From an uncultured Christensenella sp. (GTDB lineage: Bacteria > Bacillota > Clostridia > Christensenellales > UBA3700), in contig CATMWH010000002.1 in NCBI GenBank assembly GCA_950079155.1, positions 14,929 to 78,928 on the forward strand: a stretch of 64,000 nucleotides of DNA, given 5' to 3'. Below the pieces are notes generated by a model. The model did no database searches. It saw only the letters and a program-made list of their open reading frames with translations, and had not been told where the DNA came from. The translations under genes and the position numbers were made by a program. How positions within the stretch are numbered: the first letter of the stretch is position 1; every line of letters starts with the position of its first letter. Positions 28,357-59,534 of the stretch are shown piece after piece.

Positions 28357-28446
28357 AGAGAGTTGGCTGAGTGGTCGAAGGCGCACGATTGGAAATCGTG
28401 TGAACGGGAAACCGTTCCGAGGGTTCAAATCCCTCACTCTCTGCCA
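28357..28446 (+). tRNA. tRNA-Ser (anticodon GGA) with encoded CCA
   Basis: Folded by hand. Acceptor agagagt/actctct; anticodon stem cacga/tcgtg with loop ttGGAaa; long variable arm gaacgg-gaaa-ccgttc; T arm gaggg-ttcaaat-ccctc; discriminator g + cca. Confidence 0.9.
28436..28446 (+). repeat. 11-nt att core (actctctgcca) = tRNA-Ser 3' end; direct repeat of 54738-54748
   Basis: The identical 11-mer occurs at both positions. It is read in the same frame (tct ctg cca = SLP) at both sites. Confidence 0.7.
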
Positions 28447-28650
28447 CAGGTGAATAATACGAACCCACGGATAGATGAGTTCGTATTTTTCTTTTCAAGA
28501 GACTATTTTGGCGTATGTGTTAAGACCAAAATCGCTTCACCAGAACCACCCACCCCAACGTCTTGGCAAAATCAAATAAGAGATAGTTTAGGTTGCTTTA
28601 CAAAATAATTCAATATAGGCATATCGAGATAATTCGGTATGCCTATTTTT
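28447..28650 (+). repeat. tRNA-downstream module D1 (two terminator-like hairpins plus a conserved reading frame); homologous to D2 at 54749-54950
   Basis: Alignable by eye: tacgaac...gttcgta+T-run, tttgg(c/a)gt(a/g)tg, ttggcaaa.tcaa...tag(t)t(t/c)tagg(t/c)tg(c/t)ttt.caaaataa, then a second hairpin + T-run (ataggcata...tatgcctat tttttt versus gcgtatcg...cggtacgc tttttt). Confidence 0.7.
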
Positions 28651-28711
28651 TATTCAATCCCCTATTTATTTTAATTCAATATACTTATAGATAATTCAGC
28701 AAAATTATAAA

Positions 28712-28974
28712 CCTTACTTTTATTGCCTTTCGGGGTGGCTATCGTAGCACAATTCTCCCGCCTGTCAACCGCAAAAAAATATCGCTTAAGCAGTAAACTC
28801 TATTTCGTTACCAGATTATAAATTTGTTTTGCCTACATTTATGCAATATTTTTTTGTATGGCTTTCTACTCATTAAATTGTCGGTTGACAGTTGGCTTGA
28901 GATTTTTACGTTTGAAAATTCCTACCCGAATTGTGCTACGATGCCCCCTTGTCCGAAAGGCAATAAAATTAAGG
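28712..28974 (+). repeat. Hairpin A: 263-nt imperfect inverted repeat immediately upstream of the small-gene operon (ssDNA-promoter / single-strand-origin-like)
   Basis: Paired blocks: ccttacttttattgcctttcgg / ccgaaaggcaataaaattaagg; atcgtagcacaattc / gaattgtgctacgat; tgtcaaccg / cggttgaca; caaaaaaatatcgc / gcaatatttttttg. The 3' arm carries TTGACA (28885-28890). A homologous copy lies at 56155-56412, with compensatory changes. Confidence 0.75.
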
Positions 28975-28984
28975 AGTAAAAAAT

Positions 28985-29290
28985 ATGGAAAAAGTGAATG
29001 TTAGGTATTACGTAAAGAGATTGAACTCTCAAAGCACCGGTTATTCCGGAAGTGGTTATTTGTTGAATGGTGATTTGCATATCCCATCTTTCAAAGATGA
29101 AAACGAAGATTATTTAGTTTTGTATGACGCTACAAAGTATTGTAGAAAAGTCTTTGACAAAGAAAACGAATACAAAGGAAATATCACGGTTTATCAAGAC
29201 GACGTAACGGTCTACAACGAAGAACGAGATAGATACGAAACTATTGACTGTCTAGAAACGACTTATTACGTTTGGTACAAAATCATATAG
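28985..29290 (+). CDS. Hypothetical small protein (101 aa), first gene of the early operon
   Basis: ORF track. AAGGAG RBS 8 nt upstream. Tight spacing to the following genes. Confidence 0.6.
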   Translation: MEKVNVRYYVKRLNSQSTGYSGSGYLLNGDLHIPSFKDENEDYLVLYDATKYCRKVFDKENEYKGNITVYQDDVTVYNEERDRYETIDCLETTYYVWYKII

Positions 29291-29301
29291 GAAGGTGAAT
29301 T

Positions 29302-29517
29302 ATGCTTGAATACGATTATTATCATTCAGACCATTTTGTAACGTTTGACGTCATTGAAATCAATGATGAAGAAGAAACAATCACTCTTGCTATAAGTAAT
29401 CAAGGCAAGATTAGCCAAGATACTTTTCCCCTTTTTGAAGATAAGGACGGACAGCAATATTTTGAGTATGGACCTTGCTTTGAAAAGATTTACGTTGATG
29501 AATTTGTAATTTTATAA
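29302..29517 (+). CDS. Hypothetical small acidic protein (71 aa)
   Basis: ORF track. GGAAGG RBS. Strongly acidic sequence (DVIEINDEEETI...). Confidence 0.55.
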   Translation: MLEYDYYHSDHFVTFDVIEINDEEETITLAISNQGKISQDTFPLFEDKDGQQYFEYGPCFEKIYVDEFVIL

Positions 29518-29532
29518 AAAGGAGATACAAAT

Positions 29533-29946
29533 ATGAAACTCAATTTAGCAAACATTAAAGCAATTAAACGCGATAGCGACAATAAACTTGTCAAACGCGT
29601 TTGTAACTACGTCATTAGTAGATGGAACGATTACGACGATAAGACTTACATATTCAAAGACGTACTCTATCACGGTTGCGTGTCAGGTATTGTCGGCGAA
29701 CTTATCTACTACTCGGACACGTTGAGATTCTACAAGCAATATCGAAACGAGATAAACAACCTATTGAGCGAACAAATGCAATCAATGGGTTGTTTTTCTT
29801 TACAAGAAATGTTTGGCGATAAATTTGACGAAGAAGATCCACTCATTATCGACTGCCACAATCAGAACTTGATGGCGTGGTACGGCTTTGAAGAAACGCT
29901 ACGAAATATCGGCTACAACTTTGAACAATTAGAAAACTTTATATAA
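29533..29946 (+). CDS. Hypothetical protein (137 aa)
   Basis: ORF track. AAAGGAGA RBS. Confidence 0.6.
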   Translation: MKLNLANIKAIKRDSDNKLVKRVCNYVISRWNDYDDKTYIFKDVLYHGCVSGIVGELIYYSDTLRFYKQYRNEINNLLSEQMQSMGCFSLQEMFGDKFDEEDPLIIDCHNQNLMAWYGFEETLRNIGYNFEQLENFI

Positions 29947-29961
29947 AAAGGAGATATAAAT

Positions 29962-30381
29962 ATGAAAATGAAAATTAGCAAAGAACTCAAAAAAGAGAAA
30001 GCAATCGAGATTTTGAATAATCTCAACATCTACAAGCCTTACGTTGAAGGCTTTAAGGACAAAGACCAAGTTTGCTTCTTTGAAAACTTTGGCGGTTATT
30101 GGGTATTCCAAGAGCCGGAGATTGAAAAGAAAATGCGTGAAATTGAGAGCAAGTATAACTGCACCGTTTACGCAATCACTCACGAATATACCGAGTTCGG
30201 CGAGTTGTACGATTTCCTTATAGTAACCGACCACAAAATCGAGTGGAAAACGTTGGTTAATTCACAAGGAAATACTCATACCGCATTTGCATACGTTTGG
30301 AACAAAGACGCTGAATATTGCAGTGAATTTGGAGACGTTACCGTACAATCATTCGGCGGTGGAATAAGGAGAATCGCATAA
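29962..30381 (+). CDS. Hypothetical protein (139 aa)
   Basis: ORF track. AAAGGAGA RBS. Confidence 0.6.
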   Translation: MKMKISKELKKEKAIEILNNLNIYKPYVEGFKDKDQVCFFENFGGYWVFQEPEIEKKMREIESKYNCTVYAITHEYTEFGELYDFLIVTDHKIEWKTLVNSQGNTHTAFAYVWNKDAEYCSEFGDVTVQSFGGGIRRIA

Positions 30382-30382
30382 T

Positions 30383-30688
30383 ATGAAAGTATATATTGTT
30401 AAATTAGATTGGTCTACTACTGATAGCGGAGATATAAAACTTTTCACTTACAGCACTTACGACAAAGCATACGCTAAATTCAAAGAGCTAATATCCGACG
30501 AACTTAACCCCGACAATTCTTGGGTTGGCGACATTGAATGGAATGATGAAGGACAACCTACTGAACATTACATATTTGAGTATGACGATGACAATTCCAA
30601 TGAGAACGAAGTATATTGGCATATCACCGACGAATGGGATTGGTATAAACATACTTTTATAGACTTAATAATAAAGGAGATAGAATAA
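30383..30688 (+). CDS. Hypothetical small acidic protein (101 aa)
   Basis: ORF track. Starts 1 nt after the previous stop. Asp/Glu/Trp-rich (possible DNA-mimic-like composition). Confidence 0.55.
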   Translation: MKVYIVKLDWSTTDSGDIKLFTYSTYDKAYAKFKELISDELNPDNSWVGDIEWNDEGQPTEHYIFEYDDDNSNENEVYWHITDEWDWYKHTFIDLIIKEIE

Positions 30689-30689
30689 T

Positions 30690-30950
30690 ATGAAAAACAC
30701 AAAAGAAATTCAAACAATCTTAACTGCCGTCTATTGCTTAAATCACTCAAAGCAAGAGAACAAAGATAAAGACATTGCGCAGATATGCGAATATGCTTTC
30801 GCTAGAATCTTCGATAGCAATACTAACCTGCTTATCGCTTGCTGTACCGGTAAAACTTACGAAGGAATCTTGGAAGAAGTAATTGAGATAATGTATACAG
30901 AAACCAAGTACAAAGAATATATTGACTCAAAGAAAGGAGATAACCAATGA
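30690..30950 (+). CDS. Hypothetical protein (86 aa)
   Basis: ORF track. AAGGAGA RBS. Starts 1 nt after the previous stop. Confidence 0.55.
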   Translation: MKNTKEIQTILTAVYCLNHSKQENKDKDIAQICEYAFARIFDSNTNLLIACCTGKTYEGILEEVIEIMYTETKYKEYIDSKKGDNQ

Positions 30951-31123
30951 ATACGACAAAGGCTCATATCTTCTCACTCGGCGGTGAGATAGACGAAGTA
31001 ACAATAATTGAACGTAAAGACAACAATCATATCATAGTTGATTATCGCGGTGTTAAATGCACGGCGATTTTTAATATATTCGATTGCTCTTATTACGTAG
31101 ACGACATATTCGGGAGAATTTAA
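30947..31123 (+). CDS. Hypothetical small protein (58 aa), below the ORF-track cutoff
   Basis: Own translation: MNTTKAHIFSLGGEIDEVTIIERKDNNHIIVDYRGVKCTAIFNIFDCSYYVDDIFGRI*. ATGA overlap with the upstream stop; AAGGAGA RBS. Confidence 0.45.
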   Translation: MNTTKAHIFSLGGEIDEVTIIERKDNNHIIVDYRGVKCTAIFNIFDCSYYVDDIFGRI

Positions 31124-31125
31124 CA

Positions 31126-31341
31126 ATGACAAACATACAAAGACTTATAAATGATAGCAACAAAAACTGCAAAATATTCGCCAACACAATCGTAAACTTA
31201 ATGCAATCACAAGGTTTCTACGGAAGATTTTGTAGAACGATAAACGAGTTGGATGAAGAAAACTACTCTATTCTTTATCACGAATTATCTAGGCAAGATT
31301 TCAAAGATAGTTTAGACGTCGTATTTTGGTTGGAGTGCTAA
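31126..31341 (+). CDS. Hypothetical small protein (71 aa)
   Basis: Track ORF 31084..31341 trimmed to ATG 31126 (MTNIQRL), 2 nt after the previous stop. Confidence 0.5.
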   Translation: MTNIQRLINDSNKNCKIFANTIVNLMQSQGFYGRFCRTINELDEENYSILYHELSRQDFKDSLDVVFWLEC

Positions 31342-31343
31342 CT

Positions 31344-31547
31344 ATGAATTACGGATACAAACTTTGTTACAAAAAGCAAGACGATAGTAAGTGGAAAGTA
31401 TATATCGTAACAAACACTTATAGACTAGCCGATTGGCACAAACAAGCCTACGAAAAAAACTCTCCACTTAAAAACGTAACTTGGGAAGTACGACCAATAA
31501 ATACATATTGGGAATACATGCAACGTTGGAAAGGTTGCCCGTTCTGA
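31344..31547 (+). CDS. Hypothetical small protein (67 aa)
   Basis: Track ORF 31326..31547 trimmed to ATG 31344 (MNYGYKL), 2 nt after the previous stop. Confidence 0.5.
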   Translation: MNYGYKLCYKKQDDSKWKVYIVTNTYRLADWHKQAYEKNSPLKNVTWEVRPINTYWEYMQRWKGCPF

Positions 31548-31603
31548 AAAGAGCGGGCTTTTCAATATACAAACAAATAATAAATCAAAGGAGATAAAAC
31601 TAT

Positions 31604-32563
31604 ATGGCAAAATTAAACTTAACTGCTAACGGACCTGCGCAAGAACGAATACTCGCCTATCTCGAAGAAAATGCCAGCGACGTATTGGTAGAGAAAATCA
31701 ACAACGGAACTGCCATTGAAAAAGACGGCAAACAACTTATCAATAAAAAGACACTTGACGGCTTTATGCAATATGCTACCGACGAGGCAAAAAAGATTGC
31801 CGAGAAAAATGTGCGTTATGCTTGCGTAGAAGATACGACCGTCTATGGTTGGGCTATTCATTACTTTGAAGAAGAAAGTATCGAAGGCACGTTATACACC
31901 GACAAAGGCACGGAATACAAGCCGGCAACAAAAACACCAACGCCGAAAAAAATGACTACACCTATTGCAGTTGCTAAACCGAAACAGCCTTCTAACGGAC
32001 AAACTTCTCTATTCGATCTTATAGACGCACAGTTGGAAAAGAAAGACGATAACAAAAATACGGAAAAAATCGAAAGCGAAGAAGATGAAATAGAAGAAAC
32101 GGAAGAAGAAACAATAAAAGTCGAAAAAGAAACGCCGGCGGTTGAACAAAAACCGCAAGTGCCAAAATGGTATTTGGATTATCTTGATACAAAAGAAAAA
32201 TATCCGCAAGACATTATTTTATATCATCTCGGCGACTTCTATGAGGCGTTCAGTAAAGACGCTATTACATTGGCAAAAGAATTGGACTTAACACTCACAA
32301 GTCGAGATATGAAACTCAAAGAACGTGTGCCAATAGTAGGATTCCCCTACCACGTCAAATACAATTACATAAGCAAGATACGAGAAAAGCACAATGTAGT
32401 TATTATGGAACACGAAGTTAATCAAAGGCTTCCGCAAACAACAGCAAAAACAAACGACGGAAATATCGTCGAAATAGACACGGGCGAAATCATTGGCGAA
32501 AATAATCCTTACGTTAAAAAACTTTCCGCTTTGCTCGATTGTCAAATAAAATTTGTGAGGTAA
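31604..32563 (+). CDS. Fusion protein: PcfK-like (AcrIIA9-family-like) N-terminal domain, acidic linker, MutS domain I (mismatch-recognition domain) only
   Basis: C-terminal YPQDIILYHLGDFYEAFSKDAITLAKELDLTLTSRD...VPIVGFPYHVKYNYISKIREKHNVVIMEH aligns with the MutS N-terminus (hPdalLfyRmGDFYElFyeDA..a..lL.itLT.R....pipMaGvPyHa...Yl.kLv..G.kVaicEQ), including the GDFYE Phe-x-Glu motif. The N-terminal ERILAYLEEN...GWAIHYFEEESIEG resembles PcfK-like proteins, from memory. Confidence 0.7.
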   Translation: MAKLNLTANGPAQERILAYLEENASDVLVEKINNGTAIEKDGKQLINKKTLDGFMQYATDEAKKIAEKNVRYACVEDTTVYGWAIHYFEEESIEGTLYTDKGTEYKPATKTPTPKKMTTPIAVAKPKQPSNGQTSLFDLIDAQLEKKDDNKNTEKIESEEDEIEETEEETIKVEKETPAVEQKPQVPKWYLDYLDTKEKYPQDIILYHLGDFYEAFSKDAITLAKELDLTLTSRDMKLKERVPIVGFPYHVKYNYISKIREKHNVVIMEHEVNQRLPQTTAKTNDGNIVEIDTGEIIGENNPYVKKLSALLDCQIKFVR

Positions 32564-32566
32564 AAA

Positions 32567-33886
32567 ATGTTAAACGCAAATAGTATTAAACCGATTCCAA
32601 AGTATATATTAAAACTTATTCAAAAGGCGGATAAGAAAGATCATCCGGCACAAGACGGCATTGCAAGATATTATTCATACCTTGCCAAACTAGATGGCGA
32701 ACTTGTACAAATAACGGTTGCTTGCAAAAATAGATATAAAAATTGGTACTGCAAGCAAGTCGCTATTCACGACGTCCACTCTCCCGATTGTCTTATAAAA
32801 GACATAGACTTTTATTATATTGCAGGATACGTAATAGATTGGTATGAAGAAGGACTAACTAAATATCCAAAATGGAAAGGCTGTGGCAAATGGTTTCCAG
32901 CGGATAGTAAATACTTCAATATGTATGCCCCAATAGTCAATATAAAATACGCTTTAAACTTTTCTCAATATAAATACAGCGCAGTAGATTTATACAAATA
33001 TACGAACGTTCTCGTATATCTAAAATATTATGAACAATATCCACACGCTGAATTATTAGTTAAATTCGGACTTTCTAAATACGCAACAAGTAAACAAATA
33101 CTGTGTAAAACAGCCAAAGACAAAAGTTTTTGCAAGTGGCTAATACGCAATAGCAAAGAATTGACATCGCACGATTACTATGTAAGCACCCTACTAAAAG
33201 CATATAAGACCGATAAGCCGTTAGCAATAATCCAACAACTTGAAAAAGATAAAAAAGTATTTTGCCAAAAATATAATTATAGCGACATTAAAGCGTTATT
33301 CAAAACGGACAACGAGATATCCACATTATTTGATTACATAGAAAAACAAGAAACCCATATATCCGCATACAATGATTATTTGAAAGCGTGCAATTACTTG
33401 GGGCTTGATATGAATCAAAATAAAAATAGACTTCCCCACGACTTCAAGCGATGGCACGATATAAGAATTGACGAATACCAAACGGCAAAAGCATTGAAAG
33501 ACGAGCAAGAGCGAAAAGAACTATATATTAAATTCGCTAGCATTGCCGAGAAATATCTACCGTTGCAAAGAGATAGAGACAACGCCTACGTAGTAGTAAT
33601 TGCCAAAAGTCCAGCCGACTTGATGCGAGAAGGCGACATACTCCATCATTGCGTTGGAAAAATGAATTACGACCAGCGAATGATAAGAGAAGAAAGTCTT
33701 ATCTTTTTTATACGAGATAAGAACTCTCCCGACGTTCCGTTCGTAACAATAGAATACTCATTGAAACAACATAAAGTCTTGCAATGTTACGGGGATAGAG
33801 ATTCCAAACCAAACGAAAACGTACTTAACTTCGTAAATAAAAAATGGCTACCCTACGCCAACAAAAAATTAAAACAAATAGCATAA
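32567..33886 (+). CDS. PcfJ-like protein
   Basis: C-terminal LMREGDILHHCVGKMNYDQR...FFIRDKNSPDVPFVTIEY...VLQCYGDRDSKP matches my recollection of the PcfJ-like family signature (E..M.HCV..Y....G....F). It sits immediately after the PcfK-like gene, as in pCF10-type pairs. Confidence 0.6.
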   Translation: MLNANSIKPIPKYILKLIQKADKKDHPAQDGIARYYSYLAKLDGELVQITVACKNRYKNWYCKQVAIHDVHSPDCLIKDIDFYYIAGYVIDWYEEGLTKYPKWKGCGKWFPADSKYFNMYAPIVNIKYALNFSQYKYSAVDLYKYTNVLVYLKYYEQYPHAELLVKFGLSKYATSKQILCKTAKDKSFCKWLIRNSKELTSHDYYVSTLLKAYKTDKPLAIIQQLEKDKKVFCQKYNYSDIKALFKTDNEISTLFDYIEKQETHISAYNDYLKACNYLGLDMNQNKNRLPHDFKRWHDIRIDEYQTAKALKDEQERKELYIKFASIAEKYLPLQRDRDNAYVVVIAKSPADLMREGDILHHCVGKMNYDQRMIREESLIFFIRDKNSPDVPFVTIEYSLKQHKVLQCYGDRDSKPNENVLNFVNKKWLPYANKKLKQIA

Positions 33887-33905
33887 ATAAAAGGAGATTA
33901 CAACA

Positions 33906-34229
33906 ATGACAAATTATTTTAGAATTACTGCATACCATGAGAAAGAAAACTTATCCGCAATTATTGATAGCAACGGAAAATTTGAAAAACTTTGGCAATT
34001 CAGTTCTTACGTATTGCAAAAAGGCTTTACTATATTAGAAGTGTCCAATGCGGATAACTTTATAGACGTCAATTTTGATCTTGCCAATAAAGATACGCAA
34101 CACGTTCTTTTGAGAGCGGCACAATCAGGCAAACCTGAATATATAAAGCACTACATAGGCGACGTACCTTACAAAGCCGTACAAGTAAACGATATGATTT
34201 ATATACCAGAAAGAACACAAATGATTTAA
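33906..34229 (+). CDS. Hypothetical protein (107 aa)
   Basis: ORF track. AAAGGAGA RBS. Confidence 0.55.
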   Translation: MTNYFRITAYHEKENLSAIIDSNGKFEKLWQFSSYVLQKGFTILEVSNADNFIDVNFDLANKDTQHVLLRAAQSGKPEYIKHYIGDVPYKAVQVNDMIYIPERTQMI

Positions 34230-34578: not shown

Positions 34579-36582
34579 CTAATCAATATCAATTAATACA
34601 TTATCTTGATTCTTAGCCGCTGCTTTAATTGACTCCGCTATGAACCTAAATTGCGGTTTACTATGTATCTCTATAATCCATTTATTGCTTTCCATATTAG
34701 GTTGAACTATAAATAACATATCACAATTTGTAAATTCAAAAAGTGAATTTATATCAATTCCATCAGACTTTAAAAATGCACCAGCCGAAATAAATGAAAT
34801 ATGAGAAAGATCGCATACTGAATCCGCTATTATCCAATCTGCATTTACTGTTTCTTTTACCACACTTGGCTTATAGGTAAATAAATGTTCCAAGTAATGC
34901 TTTAAAGCATCTCCAATATTATTCTCTAAATCATTTACGCGTTCTTTGGATTCAATAATTAATAATAATGGATTATCCGTAATATCAAATAATTCTATAA
35001 TATGATCAGGCCGTTTTCCATTTGGACTAACACGAGGCAGTGATAACCAACGATATTCTTTCCCTTCCAATAGTACAGAAAGACCACTCCAATCTCCGCC
35101 AGGTGGATTGCACAAGCCTTCAAAACTATGTTCTTCCATTAAATATTTAAAAATATAATGCATTATAGCGTCAACATCGTTTTCTTGATAACGCTTTGGC
35201 ACATTTGATACAATATCAATAGTTGTATCTTGACTGTTATTCAAGACATTCTGTTTAAAATCAGTGTTATATATCGTCAATTCAATACTTTCATCTGAAT
35301 CCACACATGGAGCATCTACTATAATTAAATCGCTAATACCTATTATCGATCTCCACAAACCATTATCATAGAACAATGATTTATAATTTGTTTGCAATTT
35401 GTTTGCATTTGTTTTAACAATTGGTCCAAAAAGAAATGTTAAGACTTTAACGTCCTCATTTAACAGCATTGTAGCAAAGGGCAAGGCACCTCTGTCTGGT
35501 CGATTATCATCCCCTCGTGGTTTAAACCCCTTTAATATACAAACAAGTAAATCTTCATTTGCCAATAACAAATTACATACTTTTTCGTCAGTAATACTAT
35601 ATAATGCTATTACCTCATTAGCAAAAGCCTGCTTATTTTCAGAAGGTATTAATCCAAAAGGCAAATCGTTTGACGCAATACCAACAGCATATTTAGAACA
35701 AATATCTCGAAATGCCTCTGCATGTCCGAATAACGACTTCCCTGCTATTTTCTTTTTAAACCCTAATTTCTTTTGTTTACTGTAATCAATTATATCTATA
35801 TTTTCATCATATAACTTGTCCCAATCCGAATCCAAGAAAGCCCCTTTTGCATTTGACGCTAAAAAATTAACCATTTTCTTATTCTTTTCTAGCAATAATC
35901 TTTCAATTTGAATTGTATTTTGATGCATCATTCTACCCAATAAAAACTCAGCTATTTGTTGTTCGCCAAATAGATCTCTTGGAAAATCTTTCAGTGAATC
36001 ATCAAATTCCGGTTGAAATTCCTCTGCTTTGATATAGGCTTGTGTAACTAAATTTTGCGTATGTTTAGAATGAGTTATATAACTGAAAGCAACCGCCGGA
36101 TTTGGAAATCGTAATGCTTTTCTACTACGGCTTAATGTATCTAATTCATATTTAACAAAATCTAAAATGTAAATGTAAGGACAATTAGTGCGCCCAACTG
36201 AATAAGCCCTACCACTTCTTTGCCAAGCCTGATTACCAGCCTGTAATGCACTACAAAACTCAATAGCCGCAACTATATTTTCTTTGTTTTGACTTAATTC
36301 AGTAAGTATTATATCTGGTGCTTCATCAAGAAAACATCCTTCTGTTTTTAACAATTCTAAAATATTAGTATCCCACCTATCATTATGGCTTTTATTAAAA
36401 CCTGGAAAATACTCTAATTTAAATTCAGATTCAATTGGTGCGGTAGCATGTATTTTTACGTAAGGACATGCTAATGACGCAAACCCTCTTTCAATAAAAA
36501 TAGGTTTACAATACTTTATCAACAAATCTGCTATGCGTTCACATTCAACTATATTATCGCCATGTAATCTAAAAATTTTCAT
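34579..36582 (-). CDS. Putative restriction endonuclease with two PD-(D/E)xK-like regions (type IIS-like partner of two methyltransferases)
   Basis: C-terminal GKRPDHIIELF...LLLIIESKER is a canonical PD...ExK. The N-terminal EAPDIILTEL...VAAIEFCSA is a degenerate PD...E motif. Last gene of the four-gene operon, 7 nt after the Dam-like MTase. Confidence 0.55.
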   Translation of the reverse strand: MKIFRLHGDNIVECERIADLLIKYCKPIFIERGFASLACPYVKIHATAPIESEFKLEYFPGFNKSHNDRWDTNILELLKTEGCFLDEAPDIILTELSQNKENIVAAIEFCSALQAGNQAWQRSGRAYSVGRTNCPYIYILDFVKYELDTLSRSRKALRFPNPAVAFSYITHSKHTQNLVTQAYIKAEEFQPEFDDSLKDFPRDLFGEQQIAEFLLGRMMHQNTIQIERLLLEKNKKMVNFLASNAKGAFLDSDWDKLYDENIDIIDYSKQKKLGFKKKIAGKSLFGHAEAFRDICSKYAVGIASNDLPFGLIPSENKQAFANEVIALYSITDEKVCNLLLANEDLLVCILKGFKPRGDDNRPDRGALPFATMLLNEDVKVLTFLFGPIVKTNANKLQTNYKSLFYDNGLWRSIIGISDLIIVDAPCVDSDESIELTIYNTDFKQNVLNNSQDTTIDIVSNVPKRYQENDVDAIMHYIFKYLMEEHSFEGLCNPPGGDWSGLSVLLEGKEYRWLSLPRVSPNGKRPDHIIELFDITDNPLLLIIESKERVNDLENNIGDALKHYLEHLFTYKPSVVKETVNADWIIADSVCDLSHISFISAGAFLKSDGIDINSLFEFTNCDMLFIVQPNMESNKWIIEIHSKPQFRFIAESIKAAAKNQDNVLIDID

Positions 36583-36589
36583 ATACTCC

Positions 36590-37393
36590 CTACCAATTTA
36601 GATACAATGTCTCAAATACGTCTTCTGAAACATTATCAATTACTTTTCTAAAAGTGGATTTTCCTGATTTAATAATTTCTTTCCTCACATATAAATCTTG
36701 CGGCATATCAACACTATATGAGTTTGCGCCACGTTGTCCATCAAACGACAATGCATATTTAACATTTCTGGCATTTAATTCACGCAAATAGTTGAAAAAA
36801 TCAAGATAATCAATTTTCCCATAATATCTTCCTTTCGTATTATAATATGGTGGATCAAGATATATAAAGTCTCCCTCTTGTGCTGTTAAAGTTGATTCTC
36901 TATAATCTTTACAAACAAATTCCACATTCTGGATTCTATTATGCCAATCAAAAATAATTTTGCATAACCTTTCTGGTTCAATTCCTTTACGTGTATAATG
37001 CAATGAATTATTAAATTCACCATTTGAATTAAACCGAATCAATCCATTCACACAAGTTCTCGTTAAAAACAAAAAATCTAGTGGATTACCATCTATATTA
37101 AATCGTTCTCTTGCCTGATAATAAATCGTATAATCGGATTGTAATTCCTTCCAGCATTTCTTATAATACTCTGACAATAACAATGGATCTGTTTTAATCA
37201 AATTCCATAAATCAATTAAAGGTTTACAAATATCTCCACATATTGCCCTCTCAGGAGAAATAGCATACAACACAGACCCTCCTCCTATAAATGGTTCAAA
37301 ATAATTGTTAAAAGTTGGGGCCAAGTTAGCGATAAAATTTGCTTGACTGCTCTTACTTCCACTCCATTTTATAACAGGTTTAATCTTCATCAT
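36590..37393 (-). CDS. Dam-like (alpha-class, D12) N6-adenine DNA methyltransferase
   Basis: IKWSGSKSSQ (KWaGgK), FEPFIGGGSV (motif I), IYLDPPYYN (motif IV). Start set at the ATG-ATG pair 37393/37390, overlapping the upstream stop. Confidence 0.85.
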   Translation of the reverse strand: MMKIKPVIKWSGSKSSQANFIANLAPTFNNYFEPFIGGGSVLYAISPERAICGDICKPLIDLWNLIKTDPLLLSEYYKKCWKELQSDYTIYYQARERFNIDGNPLDFLFLTRTCVNGLIRFNSNGEFNNSLHYTRKGIEPERLCKIIFDWHNRIQNVEFVCKDYRESTLTAQEGDFIYLDPPYYNTKGRYYGKIDYLDFFNYLRELNARNVKYALSFDGQRGANSYSVDMPQDLYVRKEIIKSGKSTFRKVIDNVSEDVFETLYLNW

Positions 37394-38258
37394 TATCATC
37401 ACTTCCAAATATATCAAGTTTTAATTGCTCAATGTTTTCTTTTTCAATTGTTGCTTGCAATCTATCGACTGATGCTGCACAATAAGTACTATCTATTTCG
37501 AATCCTATATAATGCAAACCATTTTCTTTTGCTGCAACACACTCACTACCACTGCCACTAAAAGGGCACAACATTATTTGTCCTTTTTGAGCGGTTAATT
37601 TTATGATTCTATCTAAAATGCGCAATGGCTTTTGTGTCGGGTGTTCACACCAACCTAATTCAGATTTATTTTTGTTATTAGGAATATCCCATACTGTCCG
37701 CATTTGCTTACCTGGACTTTTCAGTTGATCCCCATCAAATGAACCATTTTTGCTAAACTCATAGTTAAAGTAATATTTTCGTTGTTTACCTCCTGAATGC
37801 ATCCACAAAATTGTTTCATGGCTTGCTGTTAAACGTCGCCCAGATAAATTTGGAAACGCGTTCCTTTTATACCAAGTAACTTCATTTATTATCTCAATCT
37901 CCAATAACTGACATATAACATTGATGATTCCTATGTTATGATAAGTTCCAAAAACCCACATAGAACCGGTCGGTTGTAAAATACGTTTTGCCTCAGAAAG
38001 CCATGCGCACGAGAATGTCCAATAATCATTTAAAGATAAATTGTCCCAATCTTCCATTACTTTATTCCAATTTCCACCCATTCCACTTAATCTGACACTA
38101 TTGTCCCATTGCAAAGAATTACCTTTTGACAAATTATATGGCGGATCAGCAATAATTAAGTCAATGGAATTGTCAGGAATATCTTTCATCCCTGAGATGC
38201 AATCCAAATTCAAAATTTTATCTAAATATTTATCTATGCTAGAGTAATCCTTTGACAT
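37380..38258 (-). CDS. Beta-class N6-adenine/N4-cytosine DNA methyltransferase
   Basis: DLIIADPPYNL (motif IV) precedes CPFSGSGSECVAA (motif I), which is the beta-class order. Start at ATG 38258 (MSKDYSS), 1 nt after the stop of the HEPN gene. Confidence 0.85.
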   Translation of the reverse strand: MSKDYSSIDKYLDKILNLDCISGMKDIPDNSIDLIIADPPYNLSKGNSLQWDNSVRLSGMGGNWNKVMEDWDNLSLNDYWTFSCAWLSEAKRILQPTGSMWVFGTYHNIGIINVICQLLEIEIINEVTWYKRNAFPNLSGRRLTASHETILWMHSGGKQRKYYFNYEFSKNGSFDGDQLKSPGKQMRTVWDIPNNKNKSELGWCEHPTQKPLRILDRIIKLTAQKGQIMLCPFSGSGSECVAAKENGLHYIGFEIDSTYCAASVDRLQATIEKENIEQLKLDIFGSDDNDED

Positions 38259-38259
38259 A

Positions 38260-46801: not shown

Positions 46802-48213
46802 CCACCGCCTTTGCTATCATTTATCTTTTGGAATAGCGTACCGATTGCCTTGAATGGTAAACGTATCAACAGCCCTACGCCTTTAAACATATATACAAAG
46901 CCTTTGCCTATAATCTTAAATACCCATACCAATGCTTGACCTAGCACCGGGCAAAAGATTGAAAGTATAGGCATTAGTACTACCAAGACGATTACTACGG
47001 CTATCAATATTAAAGCCCACTCAGGTATATTAGTAAGTCGGCTCAACCACTCCAATAAACTTGCAAATTCATTAGTATTGTTGTTGCCCGGCTTATTGTT
47101 GCCTGTTACCTTATCCGATACTGCACCCAAGTTATATACCTTGCCATCCGTTATAAACTTCAAACGTAAAACCGTTACTTGAGATATATCCGTCCAAAAC
47201 GTAACTGTGGAATAATCTCCAACAACCATAGTAATGTCTGTTTCCACAAACCGAAGTACCCATTGCTTGCCTTCTAGGTTGGCTTTCGTTTCATCTTTCA
47301 AATCTTCTTTGGATATAAACTCGGAAACGCTTTGTATTCTCTCCCATTCATACTTCTTGGAAAACCAACCGTCCGCTGCGTTTCCCCCCTTTTGTTTTCC
47401 ATTTAATTTCGCAAGTTCCTGACTTGTATCTTTATAGTTAGTTTCGCCTTTAAGTCCTATTCCTGTTGCTCGCGAAGCAGAACGACGAACATACGATACG
47501 TCGGCTTCCATAAGCGAATCTATCTTCTTATCCGTAGAAAATGCTACGTAATGCGAATGACACCAATTAGGAGATAACTTAAAACCGTTGCTGTATTCCA
47601 AATAATCCGCGTAAGGATCTATGATTTGTATTGTTTCTGTTCCTTTGCAACTGTAAGTTACTTCGCCGTTTGTAGTAGTTGCTATATACAGTTTACCTAT
47701 GGCAAACGCCACTTCGTTTTTCGTATTGTCGTTACCCGACCCTTTGTCTATACTTGAATCCCATTGACGGTAAATGCTTGTTATGTTGTAATATCGAGTA
47801 GCCTTCTCATCTACAGCAACGCCATTGACTTTGTATTTGCAAAATACTCCGTTGCAACTCAATAGCGAAAGTCCGTACAGATTTGTTCCGTCCGCGCTTT
47901 CCGAAAATGACATATTTATTTGCGTTGCTACAAGGTACTTTGTAAGTTGGCTTGGTTGATATGTATATACGAATAATTCTTTGGTCGTACTCTCTGCAAT
48001 TTGTATCATTTTTATTGAATAATCGCTTGCATTGCTTGGGTAATCGTCAACACTGAACTCTATATCTATCTGCAAATCTTCAAGAACTTCACTATACCCA
48101 GATACTGCGGCATAAGCGGGTGGCGTTTGCCACCCACCCAATATCATTACAACAAGCAAACATAACGCCAACACTATTGTTGATATACTCTTTATACTTT
48201 GCTTGAATACCAT
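46798..48213 (-). CDS. Secreted/membrane protein (471 aa): signal peptide plus C-terminal double TM; possible adsorption/assembly protein
   Basis: N-terminus ...LVVMILGGWQTPPAYAAVSG. C-terminus IPEWALILIAVVIVLVVLMPILSIFCPVLGQALVWVF... Confidence 0.6.
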   Translation of the reverse strand: MVFKQSIKSISTIVLALCLLVVMILGGWQTPPAYAAVSGYSEVLEDLQIDIEFSVDDYPSNASDYSIKMIQIAESTTKELFVYTYQPSQLTKYLVATQINMSFSESADGTNLYGLSLLSCNGVFCKYKVNGVAVDEKATRYYNITSIYRQWDSSIDKGSGNDNTKNEVAFAIGKLYIATTTNGEVTYSCKGTETIQIIDPYADYLEYSNGFKLSPNWCHSHYVAFSTDKKIDSLMEADVSYVRRSASRATGIGLKGETNYKDTSQELAKLNGKQKGGNAADGWFSKKYEWERIQSVSEFISKEDLKDETKANLEGKQWVLRFVETDITMVVGDYSTVTFWTDISQVTVLRLKFITDGKVYNLGAVSDKVTGNNKPGNNNTNEFASLLEWLSRLTNIPEWALILIAVVIVLVVLMPILSIFCPVLGQALVWVFKIIGKGFVYMFKGVGLLIRLPFKAIGTLFQKINDSKGGG

Positions 48214-48224
48214 ACTTCACCGCC

Positions 48225-49310
48225 TTATAGTATTACCGACGGCTGATCCATCTCAATGGAAGAAACGCGTGCTTGATTTATGTAACCTGTACATACAAAC
48301 TTCGACGAAATAGTATAGTTGGTATATTGTCCCGATATAGTTACGTCCACATTAAACATTCTTGCTTCCGTTATGTCCAAGAAGTACCCCGCTATCTCCG
48401 AAGTAGAAAGATTCTTAAATTGTATATCCGAATTTCTGCCTGTAATGTAAAATTGAGATACGGCGTGCGGATAATCAAAATACAACTCTTTATCGGGATT
48501 GCGATTGTACGTTCCCGTTGTAATCGTACTGCCTTTCAACTTCATATAAATGTACTGCCCTGTATCCGAAATATCGTTACTCAAACTTATTGTTGCCGTA
48601 AAATTGTCCGCCAATGTATACACCGAGCCCTTGTCGTATTGCAAATTCGTCACTCCGCCCGGACCTATGCCGTTAGGATTTATATTGAACTTAACTTCCG
48701 TAGTACCGCCCAAGTTGACTACCATATCTCCATATTTCAAACTTACGTTTTGCACCTTTTGAGAATAGTCCAATATACATTGAGCCGTAGCGTTTGAATT
48801 GTCTTTACTAACAACGCTTATTTTTATTTGCGAGCCAAACGCTTGCTTACATTCTACGTTTGCAGTCAACGCTCCATTTGACGTCGGCGTTACCGTTACG
48901 TAATCCGTTACTGATTTACCACTTGCAAAACCGCTACTACCGTCTACCCAATTTATTGACCATTCCATTTGCTTGTTAGTTGCAGTATCGGGATTTACGT
49001 TTATAGTAAGCAAACAAGCGCTGTCGGCTTGCGTACTTATTCCGTTCGCTTCATACGCTGCGCGGGGTAATACTGTGCTTACAACTTTCATACCGCTTTC
49101 TACAACTTCCGAAACCAGCATTCCGCCATTAAGATTATCATTTTCCGGTATACTAGTCGAGTTATCCGGCTTTGCTACGTTTTGCGAGTTGTACTTAAAC
49201 CACGTCTTGACATCCCAATTAGTAAATCCCAATGAGCCTATTGATATGACGAGCACAAGTACAATCGCGATAAATGCTGAAACTATGCTGAATATTGTTG
49301 TCTTTTTCAT
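48225..49310 (-). CDS. Membrane-anchored protein (361 aa), beta-rich ectodomain
   Basis: N-terminal TM TTIFSIVSAFIAIVLVLVISIGSLGF. ORF track. Confidence 0.6.
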   Translation of the reverse strand: MKKTTIFSIVSAFIAIVLVLVISIGSLGFTNWDVKTWFKYNSQNVAKPDNSTSIPENDNLNGGMLVSEVVESGMKVVSTVLPRAAYEANGISTQADSACLLTINVNPDTATNKQMEWSINWVDGSSGFASGKSVTDYVTVTPTSNGALTANVECKQAFGSQIKISVVSKDNSNATAQCILDYSQKVQNVSLKYGDMVVNLGGTTEVKFNINPNGIGPGGVTNLQYDKGSVYTLADNFTATISLSNDISDTGQYIYMKLKGSTITTGTYNRNPDKELYFDYPHAVSQFYITGRNSDIQFKNLSTSEIAGYFLDITEARMFNVDVTISGQYTNYTISSKFVCTGYINQARVSSIEMDQPSVIL

Positions 49311-49336
49311 TTTTGTTCTCCTATTATTTGATGATT

Positions 49337-49371
49337 AAAAAACTACGGCAAGCGTATAACACCTGCCGCAG
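49337..49371 (-). terminator. Strong intrinsic terminator after the 119-aa gene
   Basis: Minus strand: cugcggcagg-(9 nt)-cuugccguag (10 bp including two G-U pairs), followed by UUUUUU. Confidence 0.75.
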
Positions 49372-49380
49372 TTCCTTTAT

Positions 49381-49740
49381 TTAACGCATAAGCATTGCAA
49401 GCAAAGTCTTGTCCGAATTACGAGCCGGCTTAATTGCGCTCTCGAACGTTTCTCCCGTTTCCTTGTCTACGGTACGCACGAGAAATCTATTGCCGGAAAT
49501 CAAACTGCCGTTCGCGTCCTTGAACTCGTATGGCTCTACCACGAAATCCGCTTGCGATTCGTTGCCAAATACGATATCCAATACGGCATATCCGCCCTTG
49601 TCGTTTACGTTTGGCGGTGCAAGTTTGATTTTAACGTCCTTACCCCTTACGTTTCCGCTGATAAAATACCCAAAAAACGATTTGCCCTTATATTCAAAGG
49701 TTTCTCTTTCAACCTTGATAGCCTGTTTCTTCTTTTCCAT
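49381..49740 (-). CDS. 119-aa protein, candidate abundant DNA-binding/structural protein of the ssDNA module
   Basis: ORF track. Beta-rich sequence, AAGGAGA RBS, followed by a strong terminator (position analogous to the highly expressed genes of Ff phage). Function not recognised. Confidence 0.5.
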   Translation of the reverse strand: MEKKKQAIKVERETFEYKGKSFFGYFISGNVRGKDVKIKLAPPNVNDKGGYAVLDIVFGNESQADFVVEPYEFKDANGSLISGNRFLVRTVDKETGETFESAIKPARNSDKTLLAMLMR

Positions 49741-49758
49741 TTGACTTTATTCTCCTTT

Positions 49759-50079
49759 TTAGTTTGCTTTCTTCTTACTATCGGTTTTCTTATCTTCGGA
49801 CTGCGGTACGAGATCTTCCAACTTCGTACCCTTTTGTCTCGAATATTTAACTGCAAGGCTCTTATCGCCATATTTCTCCATAGCGACCTTGTAACGGAAA
49901 AGTCCTGCGTGGTCGCTTTGACATTGCAAATATCCGGATCTCAATCCGCTCTCGTATTCCGTAAGCGGTTTACCTTCCTTGTCGCCGTGCTGATGCACTT
50001 TTGCCTTACGTTCTTCCGCATAACTGCTTGCTCTCTTATTTGGTGAATACCAACGTCTTTCTTTGTTATAATCTGCCAT
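49759..50079 (-). CDS. Basic 106-aa protein
   Basis: Track ORF trimmed to ATG 50079 (MADYNKERRW), preceded by AGGAGA. Confidence 0.5.
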   Translation of the reverse strand: MADYNKERRWYSPNKRASSYAEERKAKVHQHGDKEGKPLTEYESGLRSGYLQCQSDHAGLFRYKVAMEKYGDKSLAVKYSRQKGTKLEDLVPQSEDKKTDSKKKAN

Positions 50080-50259
50080 TGTTTTAATTCTCCTAAATGT
50101 TCTTCGCCCGTTAAACCGATGGCCCAGCATTCGTATTTCGACGACTCTTATGTTTTCTTTGATTTGTTTAGTGTTTTATTGGTGGCCACTCTTTTCTCGA
50201 ATTTCACACTAAATCTAATCACTCAATCCCTTGCGCCGAATACATCTATATCTAAACTG

Positions 50260-50481
50260 CTAGAATTTCGCCAACGTTCCGTCCGTATATCCTAGCAATT
50301 CTTGACTAGCTGAAATTATCTTCTTTCTTGCGCAGTAGTTATAAGACACTCGCCACAACTCTACGTCAGGCGATATGCTTGCCTTATATTCAAAAAACGC
50401 AAGGGCTTTGTCAAACGAAGTAAAATACTTACTACCGTAGTTGCATTCTACTCGATACATTTTCTTGACTGTTTTCTTCAT
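50260..50481 (-). CDS. Hypothetical protein (73 aa)
   Basis: ORF track. AAGGAGAGA RBS. Confidence 0.5.
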   Translation of the reverse strand: MKKTVKKMYRVECNYGSKYFTSFDKALAFFEYKASISPDVELWRVSYNYCARKKIISASQELLGYTDGTLAKF

Positions 50482-50570
50482 ATTCTCTCCTTAAATTTAA
50501 TTCGATTTTTGTAGTTGCCGTTAAAGCCCTTACACTATATAGCCACGAAAAAGGGCAAAAGTTTTCGGTC

Positions 50571-50969
50571 TCACAAAATATTCTTCAATTTTTTATAAAT
50601 TCTTGCTAATTTATTGCTCACGCTACACTTCGCAATCCCGTCGGCCTTTGCTATTTCAGTTACACTTTGTCCTTCAAAAAATACCCTGCGAATTAGGTCT
50701 TGCTGTGTTGGTAACAACTGCGAAATTGCTTGTTGCAACTTCTCATTATCCATATTCTCAAATCCGCTATCATCTTTGAAATATTCGTCAGTTACCGAAG
50801 GCTCTTGTCCAACTTCAAAAAGGCTCTCCATTGAAACGTGCCTGCGTGTTTCTCTTCTATTGGCGAGTTGATCCACCTTTTCTAAATTTTGGTAGGCTTC
50901 GTAAAACTCATCACTTACTTCTACCGTGCTAACTTGTCCGTCAGCAAATTTATACGTTATTGTTTTCAT
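50571..50969 (-). CDS. Sigma-70 region-4 / HTH regulator typical of Gram-positive transposon-like elements
   Basis: LLPTQQDLIRRVFFEGQSVTEIAKADGIAKCSVSNKLARIYKKLKNIL is a region-4-type HTH. N-terminus is YKFADGQVSTVEVSDEF...RRETRRHVS. Confidence 0.7.
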   Translation of the reverse strand: MKTITYKFADGQVSTVEVSDEFYEAYQNLEKVDQLANRRETRRHVSMESLFEVGQEPSVTDEYFKDDSGFENMDNEKLQQAISQLLPTQQDLIRRVFFEGQSVTEIAKADGIAKCSVSNKLARIYKKLKNIL

Positions 50970-50994
50970 ATCTCTACTCCTTGAATTTTCCTAT

Positions 50995-51074
50995 CCGTAG
51001 AGCCGAGTTTCCGTAAACAAAAAGACGACAAAAAGCATTTGAGATTTGCTTCCTTGCCGTCTTGCGGTCTACGG
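50995..51074 (-). promoter_or_regulatory. Conserved structured leader (terminator-like hairpin nested in an outer stem) upstream of the sigma-like gene; homolog at 59535-59621
   Basis: Outer stem ccgtaga.c / g.tctacgg. Inner aagacggcaa / ttgtcgtctt followed by a T-run on the minus strand. The same architecture and much the same sequence lie upstream of Rep2. Confidence 0.5.
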
Positions 51075-51254
51075 ATATTTTATTGTTAGCGGACTACACC
51101 GCTTTATTTTTATTTATAACATTGATATTGCCGTTGTCGCAAAAACTTATGAGCGTAACGCAACCCTTGATTGCTATCTCAATAGTCTTACTCGGCTTAT
51201 CTACTCGACAAACGAGTTTGCCTTGATTGTTTCTTATTTCCGTCAAGTTTTCCA

Positions 51255-51563
51255 TTAAGCACTCTCCTTGATTACCGATTGCAAAAATTTTAGTAACTGC
51301 TTATTTAATACCTGAACGTATTCCGGCGTATAGCCTAGTTTGTCCGACAACGATTCTTGCGTATGATTTTTTATATACAAACAATAATACAAGTCATATA
51401 ATTTGGGCGTTGCCTTTCTCATTACTTCGTTATATCTTTCAACTGTGTTTGTAATATCGTTCTTCTTGCCGGTGCAAGCGTATGCTTCGTCAAACATATC
51501 TTTACGCATATAGTAATAGCGTATATTTTTCAAATCTTCTCTTATTGCATTTAATGTTATCAT
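51255..51563 (-). CDS. Putative HTH / sigma-region-4-like regulator (102 aa)
   Basis: C-terminal HTQESLSDKLGYTPEYVQVLNKQLLKFL is HTH-like. ORF track. Confidence 0.5.
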   Translation of the reverse strand: MITLNAIREDLKNIRYYYMRKDMFDEAYACTGKKNDITNTVERYNEVMRKATPKLYDLYYCLYIKNHTQESLSDKLGYTPEYVQVLNKQLLKFLQSVIKESA

Positions 51564-54951: not shown

Positions 54952-54998
54952 CCGTTTGGATTACTCCGTGATTTAACTCTTTGGAAGTAGCACAATTC
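54952..54998 (+). repeat. Partial copy (5' arm only) of the long hairpin
   Basis: ccgtttggattactccgtgatttaactctttggaagtagcacaattc aligns with tcgtttgggataccccgtgatttagcctttcggagtgtctatcgtagcacagttc at 56141-56195. The similarity stops at aattc. Confidence 0.6.
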
Positions 54999-55023
54999 AG
55001 CAAATTAAATTTAAATGCCGTTC

Positions 55024-55986: not shown

Positions 55987-56154
55987 TCAAACTTTCTCCA
56001 TTGTCAACTTTGCGCGTTCCCCATTTACTTTAAAATATTTTGGGGACATAATTATAGCATTTGTAGACATTGTGGTCAATATTTATAACTAAAAAAGTCA
56101 GAATGTTTACTATGTGCGAATGTTTGGGAATGTTTTTATTTCGTTTGGGATACC

Positions 56155-56412: not shown

Positions 56413-56488
56413 AGGTATAGAAATATGCAAAAAGTAGTTTACTCGGTTTCCAAAGACAACATAAAATATGGGCACACCGTTATTGGGG

Positions 56489-59465: not shown

Positions 59466-59534
59466 TGATTTTCTCCTTTTCTTGAATTTTGTGTTGCTTG
59501 AAAAGTACACTCATTCTTACGATGTATCCATATA

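Follow-up and report, generated by a model that had tools for sequence, protein, structure and literature searches.

The DNA analysed here is a 64,000-nt stretch (the window) of contig CATMWH010000002.1 from an uncultured Christensenella sp., and it carries a probable integrated element next to a tRNA-Ser(GGA) gene (28357-28446, plus strand). From left to right follow an intrinsic terminator (28615-28646, plus strand), a long imperfect hairpin (copy A, 28712-28974), an early operon read rightwards (28985-34229, plus strand), a series of minus-strand genes from 34579 to 51563, and a large serine recombinase gene at the right end (53228-54910, plus strand). The last 11 nt of the tRNA gene (28436-28446) recur at 54738-54748, within the 3' end of the recombinase gene, as the proposed attachment (att) core, and in both places the repeat is followed by a homologous hairpin with a T-run; the region from 28446 to about 54750 is taken as one integrated element. 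The early operon comprises a 101-aa open reading frame (ORF), a DUF7222 gene, three small ORFs, a PcfK-like gene with a MutS domain I, a PcfJ gene and a 107-aa ORF. The subject of this work is the hairpin in front of it. Our analysis makes it fairly probable that this hairpin would serve as a single-stranded DNA (ssDNA) promoter, similar in action to the Frpo/ssi hairpins and belonging to an unrelated sequence family.

Both copy A and a second copy in the window, copy C (about 56150-56418, slightly wider than the 56155-56412 given in the earlier note), folded as DNA into one long imperfect hairpin each. The plus-strand folds reached -55.8 kcal/mol in A and -52.0 kcal/mol in C (z -9.2 and -8.5), the minus-strand folds -64.4 and -57.3 kcal/mol (z -10.3 and -9.2), and none of 200 dinucleotide shuffles matched the stability of either copy. 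Folding on both strands, which had been proposed as a check, thus gave stable single hairpins throughout, with z from -8.5 to -10.3. The two copies share 81% identity over the aligned stretch, with unrelated flanks, and the compensatory differences previously read from them are real: cacaattc/gaattgtg in A is cacagttc/gaactgtg in C, attgcc/ggcaat is ttagcc/ggctaa, and atatcgc, which in A leaves one C.A mismatch opposite gcaatat, is replaced by a perfect atattgc/gcaatat pair in C. The GC content of the hairpin was 0.38 in A, against about 0.36 in the early operon, and ranged from 0.34 to 0.52 across copies.

In the minus-strand fold of copy A, which is the proposed functional one, the left arm (28712-28790) is the 3' arm and the right arm (28839-28974) the 5' arm, the latter being continuous with the template strand of the operon. 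The right arm contains a TTGACA (28885-28890) which, as had been stated, is base-paired; its partner is TGTCAA at 28763-28768, and in copy C, the corresponding TTGACA at 56326-56331 pairs with 56203-56208. The large unpaired bulge reported after this motif is also there: it measures 37 nt (28891-28927) and faces 7 nt of the left arm (28756-28762). The right arm has one more bulge, about 25 nt long (28857-28881) and absent from the earlier description, on the loop side of the TTGACA duplex. The claim that the hairpin ends before the ribosome-binding site (RBS) had to be corrected, since the basal pairs CCTT 28712-28715/AAGG 28971-28974 reach into the Shine-Dalgarno sequence AAGGAG (28971-28976, plus strand), the first four bases of which lie in the hairpin base. 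The ATG start follows at 28985 (the whole initiation region being 28971-28987), and at 56425 after hairpin C.

The conservation of the fold was assessed on a MAFFT alignment of 18 sequences with a majority-vote structure of 59 pairs and 500 shuffles. Standard pairs were formed in 84.4% of the cells compared to 76.8% after shuffling, 30 of the 59 pairs were altered on both sides (17 in the shuffled alignments), and the covariation score was 0.22 against 0.11; on none of five measures did any of the 500 shuffles equal the observed value. Sliding the partner by 1-3 columns lowered the pairing to 37-48%. Counted with the left arm as anchor, 50 paired columns had at least two Watson-Crick pair types, and the covariation extends over about 60 consecutive pairs, with arms of at least 75 nt. 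Two examples from the related loci (numbered here with the prefix L) are the change of GCCTTTCGG/CCGAAAGGC to GCCTTACGG/CCGTAAGGC in L041 and of TGTCAACCG/CGGTTGACA to AGTAAACGG/CGTTTACT in L010. The covariation first noticed between two copies therefore persists in a larger alignment, above both the shuffle and the slide controls, and judged by these comparisons, the hairpin structure is under selection.

A nucleotide profile built from 18 copies (nhmmer) matched exactly one full-length hairpin per locus at 39 loci, in addition to A (28716-28976) and C, with scores of 95-233 bits on the operon strand and a palindromic echo of at most 37 bits on the opposite strand. The family members come from Clostridia genomes and gut metagenomes. 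Pattern scans yielded eight further copies in Clostridia and Christensenella genomes and metagenomes, the metagenome scan contributing only two loci; one genome match (L004) was a chance match and was rejected. The protein search was far more productive with DUF7222 (560 homologue clusters) than with the first ORF of the early operon (a single match). Contigs retrieved for eight DUF7222 clusters, seven with 64-74% identity to the window protein and one identical, had the same operon in all cases, headed by a hairpin of about 250-320 nt which ended 0-13 nt before the first ATG. This distance held for the 18 copies examined, the exception being L024, where the automatic boundary failed. The suggestion that homologs would be found upstream of PcfK/PcfJ-type operons was thus borne out: in the copies examined the hairpin is followed by the DUF7222...PcfK/MutS_I...PcfJ operon. 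The first genes of the operon differ among loci, and those of copy A and L003 are unrelated under the same hairpin type; this marks the hairpin as a separate module. A blastn search with 28700-28985 (word size 11) against PLSDB (72,556 plasmids) and INPHARED gave no match at E <= 0.01, exact-pattern scans of IMG/VR for the hairpin gave none, and no earlier description of the hairpin family was found in the literature searched. Papers sought on PcfK/PcfJ, on hairpin promoters of inoviruses and on ssoA likewise brought up nothing of relevance.

Read on the minus strand, the left arm presents without interruption an A/T tract, a TTGAC[A/T] box, a spacer of 16-17 nt, TRTGc and a TAnnnT-like hexamer. 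By sequence, this array is a Gram-positive sigma-A promoter. The promoter scan independently reported a minus-strand TTGACA-16-TACGAT with TG, 10 matches out of 12, in both A and C, and in the region 28400-29050 this was the only sigma-70-type promoter reported. In copy A the A/T tract ATATTTTTTT (28773-28782, minus strand) occupies the position of an UP element; ATA(A/T)TTTTT is kept in most families, and the stretch upstream of the -35 box is A/T-rich (ATATTTTTTTGCGG) across 19 copies. The -35 box itself, TTGACA at 28763-28768 (minus strand; 56203-56208 in C), is the partner of the right-arm TTGACA and reads TTGAC[A/T] in 16 copies, TTTAC[A/T] in two and TTGATA in one. TGTGC at 28747-28751 (minus strand) can be read as a '-16 region' TRTG or as the TGn of an extended -10, and the scan reports the TG before the second hexamer; TGC stands directly before that hexamer in all 19 copies. 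The spacer between -35 and -10 is 16-17 nt, or 18 nt in L038. The -10 hexamer, TACGAT at 28741-28746 (minus strand), lies 16 nt past the -35 box in A and occurs at 56181-56186 in C; it is TACGAT in 11 copies and TACAAC in two, with TACGCT, CACGAT, CACACT, TATCCT, TAAAAC and CAACCA once each. Hence the A at position 2 is invariant and the T at position 6 is present in 15 of the 19.

The two arms differ in a consistent manner. The large bulges were on the right arm in all 17 copies in which both arms were readable, and the distance from TTGACA to TGTGC is 41-50 nt on the right arm compared to 11-13 nt on the left. The right arm carries its TTGACA only because it pairs with the left-arm -35 box. 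Its partner of the -10 hexamer is variable (TCCTCC, CACTCT, TCTTTT and others) and often mismatched. With the right-arm hexamer free to vary, the region from about -10 to +6 forms an internal loop, which was found in at least half of the copies. In L041 the left-arm TTGACA is intact and its right-arm counterpart reads TTGtACA; in L036 the left arm has kept TG, opposite AG on the right. Taken together, the minus-strand fold is a stable stem-loop which rebuilds -35 and -10 boxes at canonical spacing, as is expected of an ssDNA promoter. In duplex DNA the left-arm promoter is directed leftwards, to the tRNA gene and not to the operon, and in a circular duplex it would face the end of the recombinase gene. 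The folded minus strand runs from the operon template on its 5' side through the right arm and the loop to the left arm on its 3' side. Followed from loop to base, the left arm then has the place of the non-template strand and the right arm that of the template, and the promoter is directed into the operon. The general idea of the earlier note, a hairpin promoter or single-strand origin before the early operon, is therefore the one best supported, with another geometry: a plus-strand hairpin is transcribable only leftwards, and the right-arm TTGACA with a -10 region in the bulge cannot drive the operon in that form.

What the right arm does contain in the window is a possible conventional duplex promoter, TTGACA (28885-28890), 16 nt and TACGTT (28907-28912), i.e., 28885-28912 on the plus strand. 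A -10 region in the bulge had been proposed as part of an ssDNA promoter; TTGACA-16-TACGTT is confined to the clade of the window and would be an ordinary duplex promoter. A right-arm TAYRTT at 16-17 nt was found in A, C, L001-L003 and L005-L007, in degenerate form (AATGTC) in L008, and in none of L010, L020, L028, L034, L036, L038, L041 and L045; a conserved bulge -10 as a general feature of the hairpin was accordingly rejected. One could nevertheless suppose that the operon is driven by such a duplex promoter (right-arm TTGACA-16/17-TAYRTT) and that the inverted repeat regulates it, as a divergent promoter, an operator-like site or a cruciform. Copy A and most of its clade do have the motif, the left arm offers a good sigma-A promoter in duplex DNA as well, and symmetric protein sites can yield apparent covariation. 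Yet the hairpin is conserved in the eight copies devoid of the bulge -10, its covariation runs through about 60 consecutive pairs, far longer than any operator, and the leftward promoter would have no consistent target, its upstream neighbours being a tRNA gene, host genes or genes in either orientation. We regard this explanation as quite unlikely.

Another way to account for the conserved pairing is a structured RNA made by upstream transcription, either a long 5' untranslated region which sequesters the RBS or a 6S-like rod. Indeed, copy A folds stably as RNA (z -8.9), and a full-length transcript would have its Shine-Dalgarno sequence base-paired. Against this stand the plus-oriented terminator upstream of A (28615-28646) and, in L010, L020, L028, L034, L036, L038, L045 and L047, a GC hairpin with a T-run in plus orientation within the apical loop. 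With terminators located before the hairpin or in its apical loop, both arms would not share one RNA. Moreover, the promoter scan gave no plus-strand promoter-like site upstream of A, only two G.T single mismatches were counted versus 1132 Watson-Crick stem pairs, and the Rfam search returned nothing but tRNA at the gathering threshold in the window and nothing at E <= 1 in 28600-29050. The structured RNA, named in the earlier note as the alternative, is thus disfavoured by the terminators, the scarcity of G.T pairs and the empty Rfam search, and must be considered very improbable.

Which strand becomes single-stranded was approached through gene orientation, base composition and folding. The strand which Ff phages package, or which rolling-circle plasmids displace, is the sense strand for Rep and most genes. 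In the element all core genes, including those for Rep and the Zot-like ATPase, are on the minus strand and the early operon is on the plus strand, with the same arrangement in the 'Bacteriophage sp.' scaffold MT835493. Since the operon is opposite to the core genes, the minus strand is its template. The GC skew of the sense strand at third codon positions (GC3 skew) was -0.29 in the early operon, -0.23 in the recombinases, +0.15 in the core and +0.37 in the cargo genes; in other words, G exceeds C on the minus strand by 0.15-0.37 in all four gene groups, whatever their orientation. The strand effect on GC3 in host genes is about 0.08, and the skew of the element is about two to three times larger; L028 and L034 showed the same pattern as the window element. 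Of 18 copies, 14 also folded more stably as the minus strand, with a mean difference of 4.2 kcal/mol, and single stem mismatches were more often plus-strand A.C, which is G.T on the minus strand (8 cases), than plus-strand G.T (2 cases). The strand evidence from GC3 skew, folding energy and mismatches is weak and concordant; together with gene orientation, it makes the minus strand probably the single-stranded form.

The two core proteins on which the presumption of an ssDNA stage had been based were both verified. The HUH rolling-circle Rep of the G2P type (44429-45451, minus strand) matched Pfam REP_ORF2-G2P and has the motifs HFHGLFH and YLMKY; it is 53.5% identical to a gene product of MT835493, a 57-kb scaffold from human faeces with the same layout. 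The Zot-like P-loop ATPase (45977-46801, minus strand) matched the Zot-like PHROG at 4e-12, and the phage collection contained a single relative, the Zot encoded by an Inoviridae genome (PQ006185, 30% identity) obtained from rodent faeces. A passage of the element through ssDNA would be expected from these genes. The core also has two membrane or secreted proteins and small ORFs on the minus strand. PDB and NCBIfam searches for Rep, Zot and the 119-aa protein gave no match, and no relaxase or type IV secretion system domain was found in the proteins of the element. The carriers of the hairpin family are integrative rolling-circle elements of Clostridia, for which 'inovirus-like' is used as a working label. 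Directly 3' of each of the two Rep genes in the window is a GC-rich hairpin (44249-44431 and 60039-60270, e.g., GCAGGGCGTGTCCTTGTCT / AGACAAGCACACGCCCTGC), and both hairpins may be rolling-circle origins; the 94-aa ORF at 44217-44501 is probably not a real gene. As a Rep nick site, CTACGATGCCCCC bears a superficial resemblance to the nick region of pMV158 but lies on the variable arm, and was discarded.

With a Rep and a recombinase in the element, the hairpin might be their recognition structure, namely a plus-strand origin, an origin of transfer (oriT) or a folded single-stranded att site as in CTX phage. HUH enzymes and XerCD do act on folded ssDNA, and the hairpin is near the left end of the element. 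On the other hand, HUH recognition sites are short hairpins, not structures of 260 nt with a full promoter, and the Rep gene is 16 kb away with hairpins of its own next to it. Integration is by a large serine recombinase, an enzyme type that acts on duplex DNA. The att core at the 3' end of the tRNA gene is 265 nt off, and the distance between tRNA-Ser and hairpin in the four loci where this tRNA gene lies upstream varies from about 100 to 3700 nt, which also excludes the composite of att sites that the earlier note had mentioned as a way for its proposal to fail. There is hardly any probability left for such a recognition role.

A more closely related function is that of a single-strand (minus-strand) origin, at which RNA polymerase would make nothing but a short primer, the proximity of the operon being incidental. 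The physical needs of such an origin and of an ssDNA promoter are the same, and the hairpin shares with ssoA/ssoU and the minus origin of Ff phages a strand- and orientation-specific imperfect palindrome of 150-300 nt (250-320 nt here) with -35/-10 mimicry by which host RNA polymerase would recognise it, carried in the non-coding part of a rolling-circle replicon with an HUH Rep. There is one hairpin per element, and Frpo transcripts themselves prime DNA synthesis (bioRxiv 10.64898/2026.01.09.698686). Four points favour gene expression over an origin. The hairpin base overlaps the Shine-Dalgarno sequence, with the ATG 0-13 nt further on despite the differing first genes, while an origin needs neither. 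The predicted start is directed out of the hairpin, straight into the Shine-Dalgarno-ATG junction and 5 kb of coding template. The third point concerns a family mark: ssoA loops are defined by the CS-6 hexamer TAGCG[A/T] in the terminal loop and by an RSB site, and TAGCG[AT] was absent from both strands of all 19 copies. Finally, other GC-rich hairpins adjoin Rep (44249-44431) and could be the origins, and the position of the present hairpin is tied to the operon, not to Rep. A pure single-strand origin thus appears unlikely, and a dual role in promotion and priming may apply.

Frpo/ssi hairpins rebuild -35 and -10 boxes, drive the leading-region genes templated by the transferred strand and are off as duplex; the demonstrated cases of such ssDNA promoters are so far confined to the IncF and IncI plasmids of Enterobacteria (PMC9849209, PMC12672017, PMC11541004). 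For elements of Gram-positive bacteria, the mechanism was ruled out in pLS20 (PMC8708921), and an island of S. pneumoniae is a low-confidence candidate (PMC11541004). The hairpin described here resembles Frpo/ssi in being a long imperfect hairpin of the presumed entering strand that would rebuild both boxes, in its place directly upstream of putative early establishment or anti-defence genes templated by the hairpin strand, in its expected silence as duplex and in the possible priming of the complementary strand. It differs in the host, which belongs to Clostridia instead of Enterobacteria and so to another phylum, in the Gram-positive type of promoter with a TRTG -16 region, in its carrier, an integrative element with an HUH Rep and a Zot-like ATPase and no detected relaxase or type IV secretion system, in occurring as one copy per element, and in the intrinsic terminator built into the apical loop in most families. 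Homology to the Frpo/ssi sequence family, for which BLAST E < 1e-6 is the threshold (Samuel et al. 2024), was not found, the blastn searches of PLSDB and INPHARED being empty. The ssDNA-promoter mechanism as such is already known, and what is new is the sequence family and its biological setting.

A comparison with EGeRS1 of the pLS20 family is also instructive. This region is 400-750 bp long, GC-rich (51% against 38%) and multi-branched; its fold shows no recognisable promoter, and the transferred strand that carries it is the non-template one (PMC8708921). Both structures belong to Gram-positive mobile elements and form a non-coding block rich in inverted repeats before the RBS of establishment or anti-restriction operons, with read-through from upstream blocked. 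In contrast to EGeRS1, the present family has a single hairpin of 250-320 nt (246-288 nt when compared with the EGeRS1 features) with a GC content near that of the element and a full promoter, and its strand is probably the template.

For the ssDNA promoter, the following sequence of events can be proposed. The element would enter the cell, or be displaced, as the Rep/Zot-sense strand, i.e., the minus strand of the window, which by gene orientation is the template of the oppositely directed early operon. On this strand the 260-nt inverted repeat, as computed, would fold into the hairpin in vivo. The 3' arm would supply an intact non-template strand (A/T tract, TTGACA, 16 nt, TGTGc, TACGAT), and the 5' arm the template strand, paired at the -35 box and the downstream spacer, with its two bulges looped out where RNA polymerase probably has few contacts. 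The mismatched region of the 5' arm from about -10 to +6, seen in most relatives, may act as a pre-opened bubble. The host sigma-A RNA polymerase would then start about 35 nt before the ATG and leave the hairpin base into the operon. From the geometry, the start is predicted about 7 nt past the -10 box at 28945-28952 (plus strand), giving a leader of 33-40 nt; such an mRNA would be made without the left arm, and for that reason its Shine-Dalgarno sequence would be unpaired and the RBS free. After synthesis of the complementary strand, the promoter would face away from the operon and expression would stop, while a terminator in the apical loop (most families) or just upstream (copy A) would shield the operon in duplex DNA. 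In the window's clade, a weak ordinary promoter may be retained in the bulge. Like that of Frpo, the transcript may in addition serve as a primer for the complementary strand. The wider proposition, that a phage-like, non-conjugative rolling-circle element from gut Gram-positives expresses an establishment or anti-defence operon from the incoming strand via such an 'inside-out' promoter, in which one stretch of 60 nt is a sigma-A promoter directed outward in the duplex and brought to face the operon by folding alone, with the apical terminator keeping the operon off later, is offered tentatively, its probability being slightly short of even.

Several observations weigh against the ssDNA promoter. 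Position 6 of the -10 hexamer is not a T in L010 and L047 (TACAAC), L028 (TAAAAC) and L038 (CAACCA), and in L010 and L047 the right-arm hexamer, TACTTT, is nearer to consensus than the left-arm one. In the clade of the window, the right-arm TTGACA-16/17-TAYRTT could, judging from its sequence, express the operon without the hairpin; this clade also has no apical terminator, and in the window itself the operon may not depend strictly on ssDNA. The folding preference for the minus strand was absent or reversed in 4 of 18 copies (L034, L038, L045 and L047), and host genes adjoining the element are skewed the same way, though less strongly. None of the genes was recognised as coding for a major coat protein, and no obvious membrane segment was seen in the Zot-like ATPase; that the element travels as ssDNA is not certain. 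The sampling is uneven as well, with 11 of the 19 copies from one clade, about 9-10 independent lineages overall, and six copies retrieved by a pattern which fixes part of the -10 block. Copies retrieved via proteins, namely L041, L024 and the divergent families, also carry the promoter motif.

Some features of the element and its neighbourhood deserve mention in their own right. Between the early operon and Rep is a defence cargo (34579-43994) with a type II restriction enzyme (E 1e-203), two methylases, one D12-class and one N6/N4, and a single 1213-aa protein combining a calcineurin-like phosphoesterase with an HD domain, this last one without PADLOC match; L028 and L034 have SIR2, ParE/Phd or other cargo at the equivalent place. 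Within the early operon, the MutS domain I of the PcfK-like protein (31604-32563) has an intact mismatch-binding Phe-X-Glu motif (GDFYEAF), and one may speculate that the protein binds DNA with mismatches or bulges, perhaps the hairpin, or disturbs the host mismatch repair. The DUF7222 protein (29533-29946) has homologues, about 35% identical, in lytic phages of Enterococcus and Staphylococcus with a size of about 150 kb. For several of the Enterococcus records listed, the match is a few kb at most from a record end, a location that would fit an early or host-takeover role. At the right end, the 3' coding part of the serine recombinase gene includes the 11-nt att core ACTCTCTGCCA, the 3' end of tRNA-Ser. 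In related loci (L005 823-996), sequence for the last 58 residues of the recombinase is also found directly after tRNA-Ser; the gene thus seems to read across attP, and the C-terminus of the recombinase would seem to be exchanged upon integration.

About 240 nt to the right of the att core repeat is a degenerate third copy of the hairpin (54985-55030), consisting of the left arm only (TTACTCCGTGATTTAACTCTTTGGAAGTAGCACAATTCAGCAAAT), with the right arm missing and below the nhmmer threshold; it looks like a remnant of an earlier tandem element. Divergent from hairpin C is a 320-aa gene (55024-55986) preceded by a strong minus-strand promoter-like site, TTGACC-17-TATAAT with TG (56051-56079, 11 matches out of 12). 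The first ORF after hairpin C (56425 onward) is cut after about 31 nt compared to the intact L009. Beyond the cut, the sequence continues with the 3' end of a different large serine recombinase gene (56489-58120, minus strand); apparently, the early operon of this copy was interrupted or supplanted by a further element. A second G2P-type Rep (58572-59510) follows, and then a complete Gabija system with GajB (60495-62237, E 3e-197) and GajA (62246-64000, E 3e-177), the latter running past the end of the window.

If the hairpin is indeed an ssDNA promoter, it would represent the first family of such promoters outside enterobacterial conjugative plasmids, with the mechanism tied to a Rep/Zot element instead of conjugation, and would extend 'zygotic induction' to the entry of ssDNA viruses or elements in Firmicutes. 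ssDNA promoters are the only known route by which a mobile element can be expressed before second-strand synthesis, and the present family would give a well-defined and widespread example from gut Clostridia, every DUF7222 operon examined being headed by the hairpin. The DUF7222, PcfK-MutS-I and PcfJ genes would then be the first genes expressed upon entry and candidates for anti-defence or establishment functions, and the hairpin itself would be usable as a compact part for expressing genes in Firmicutes from ssDNA only.

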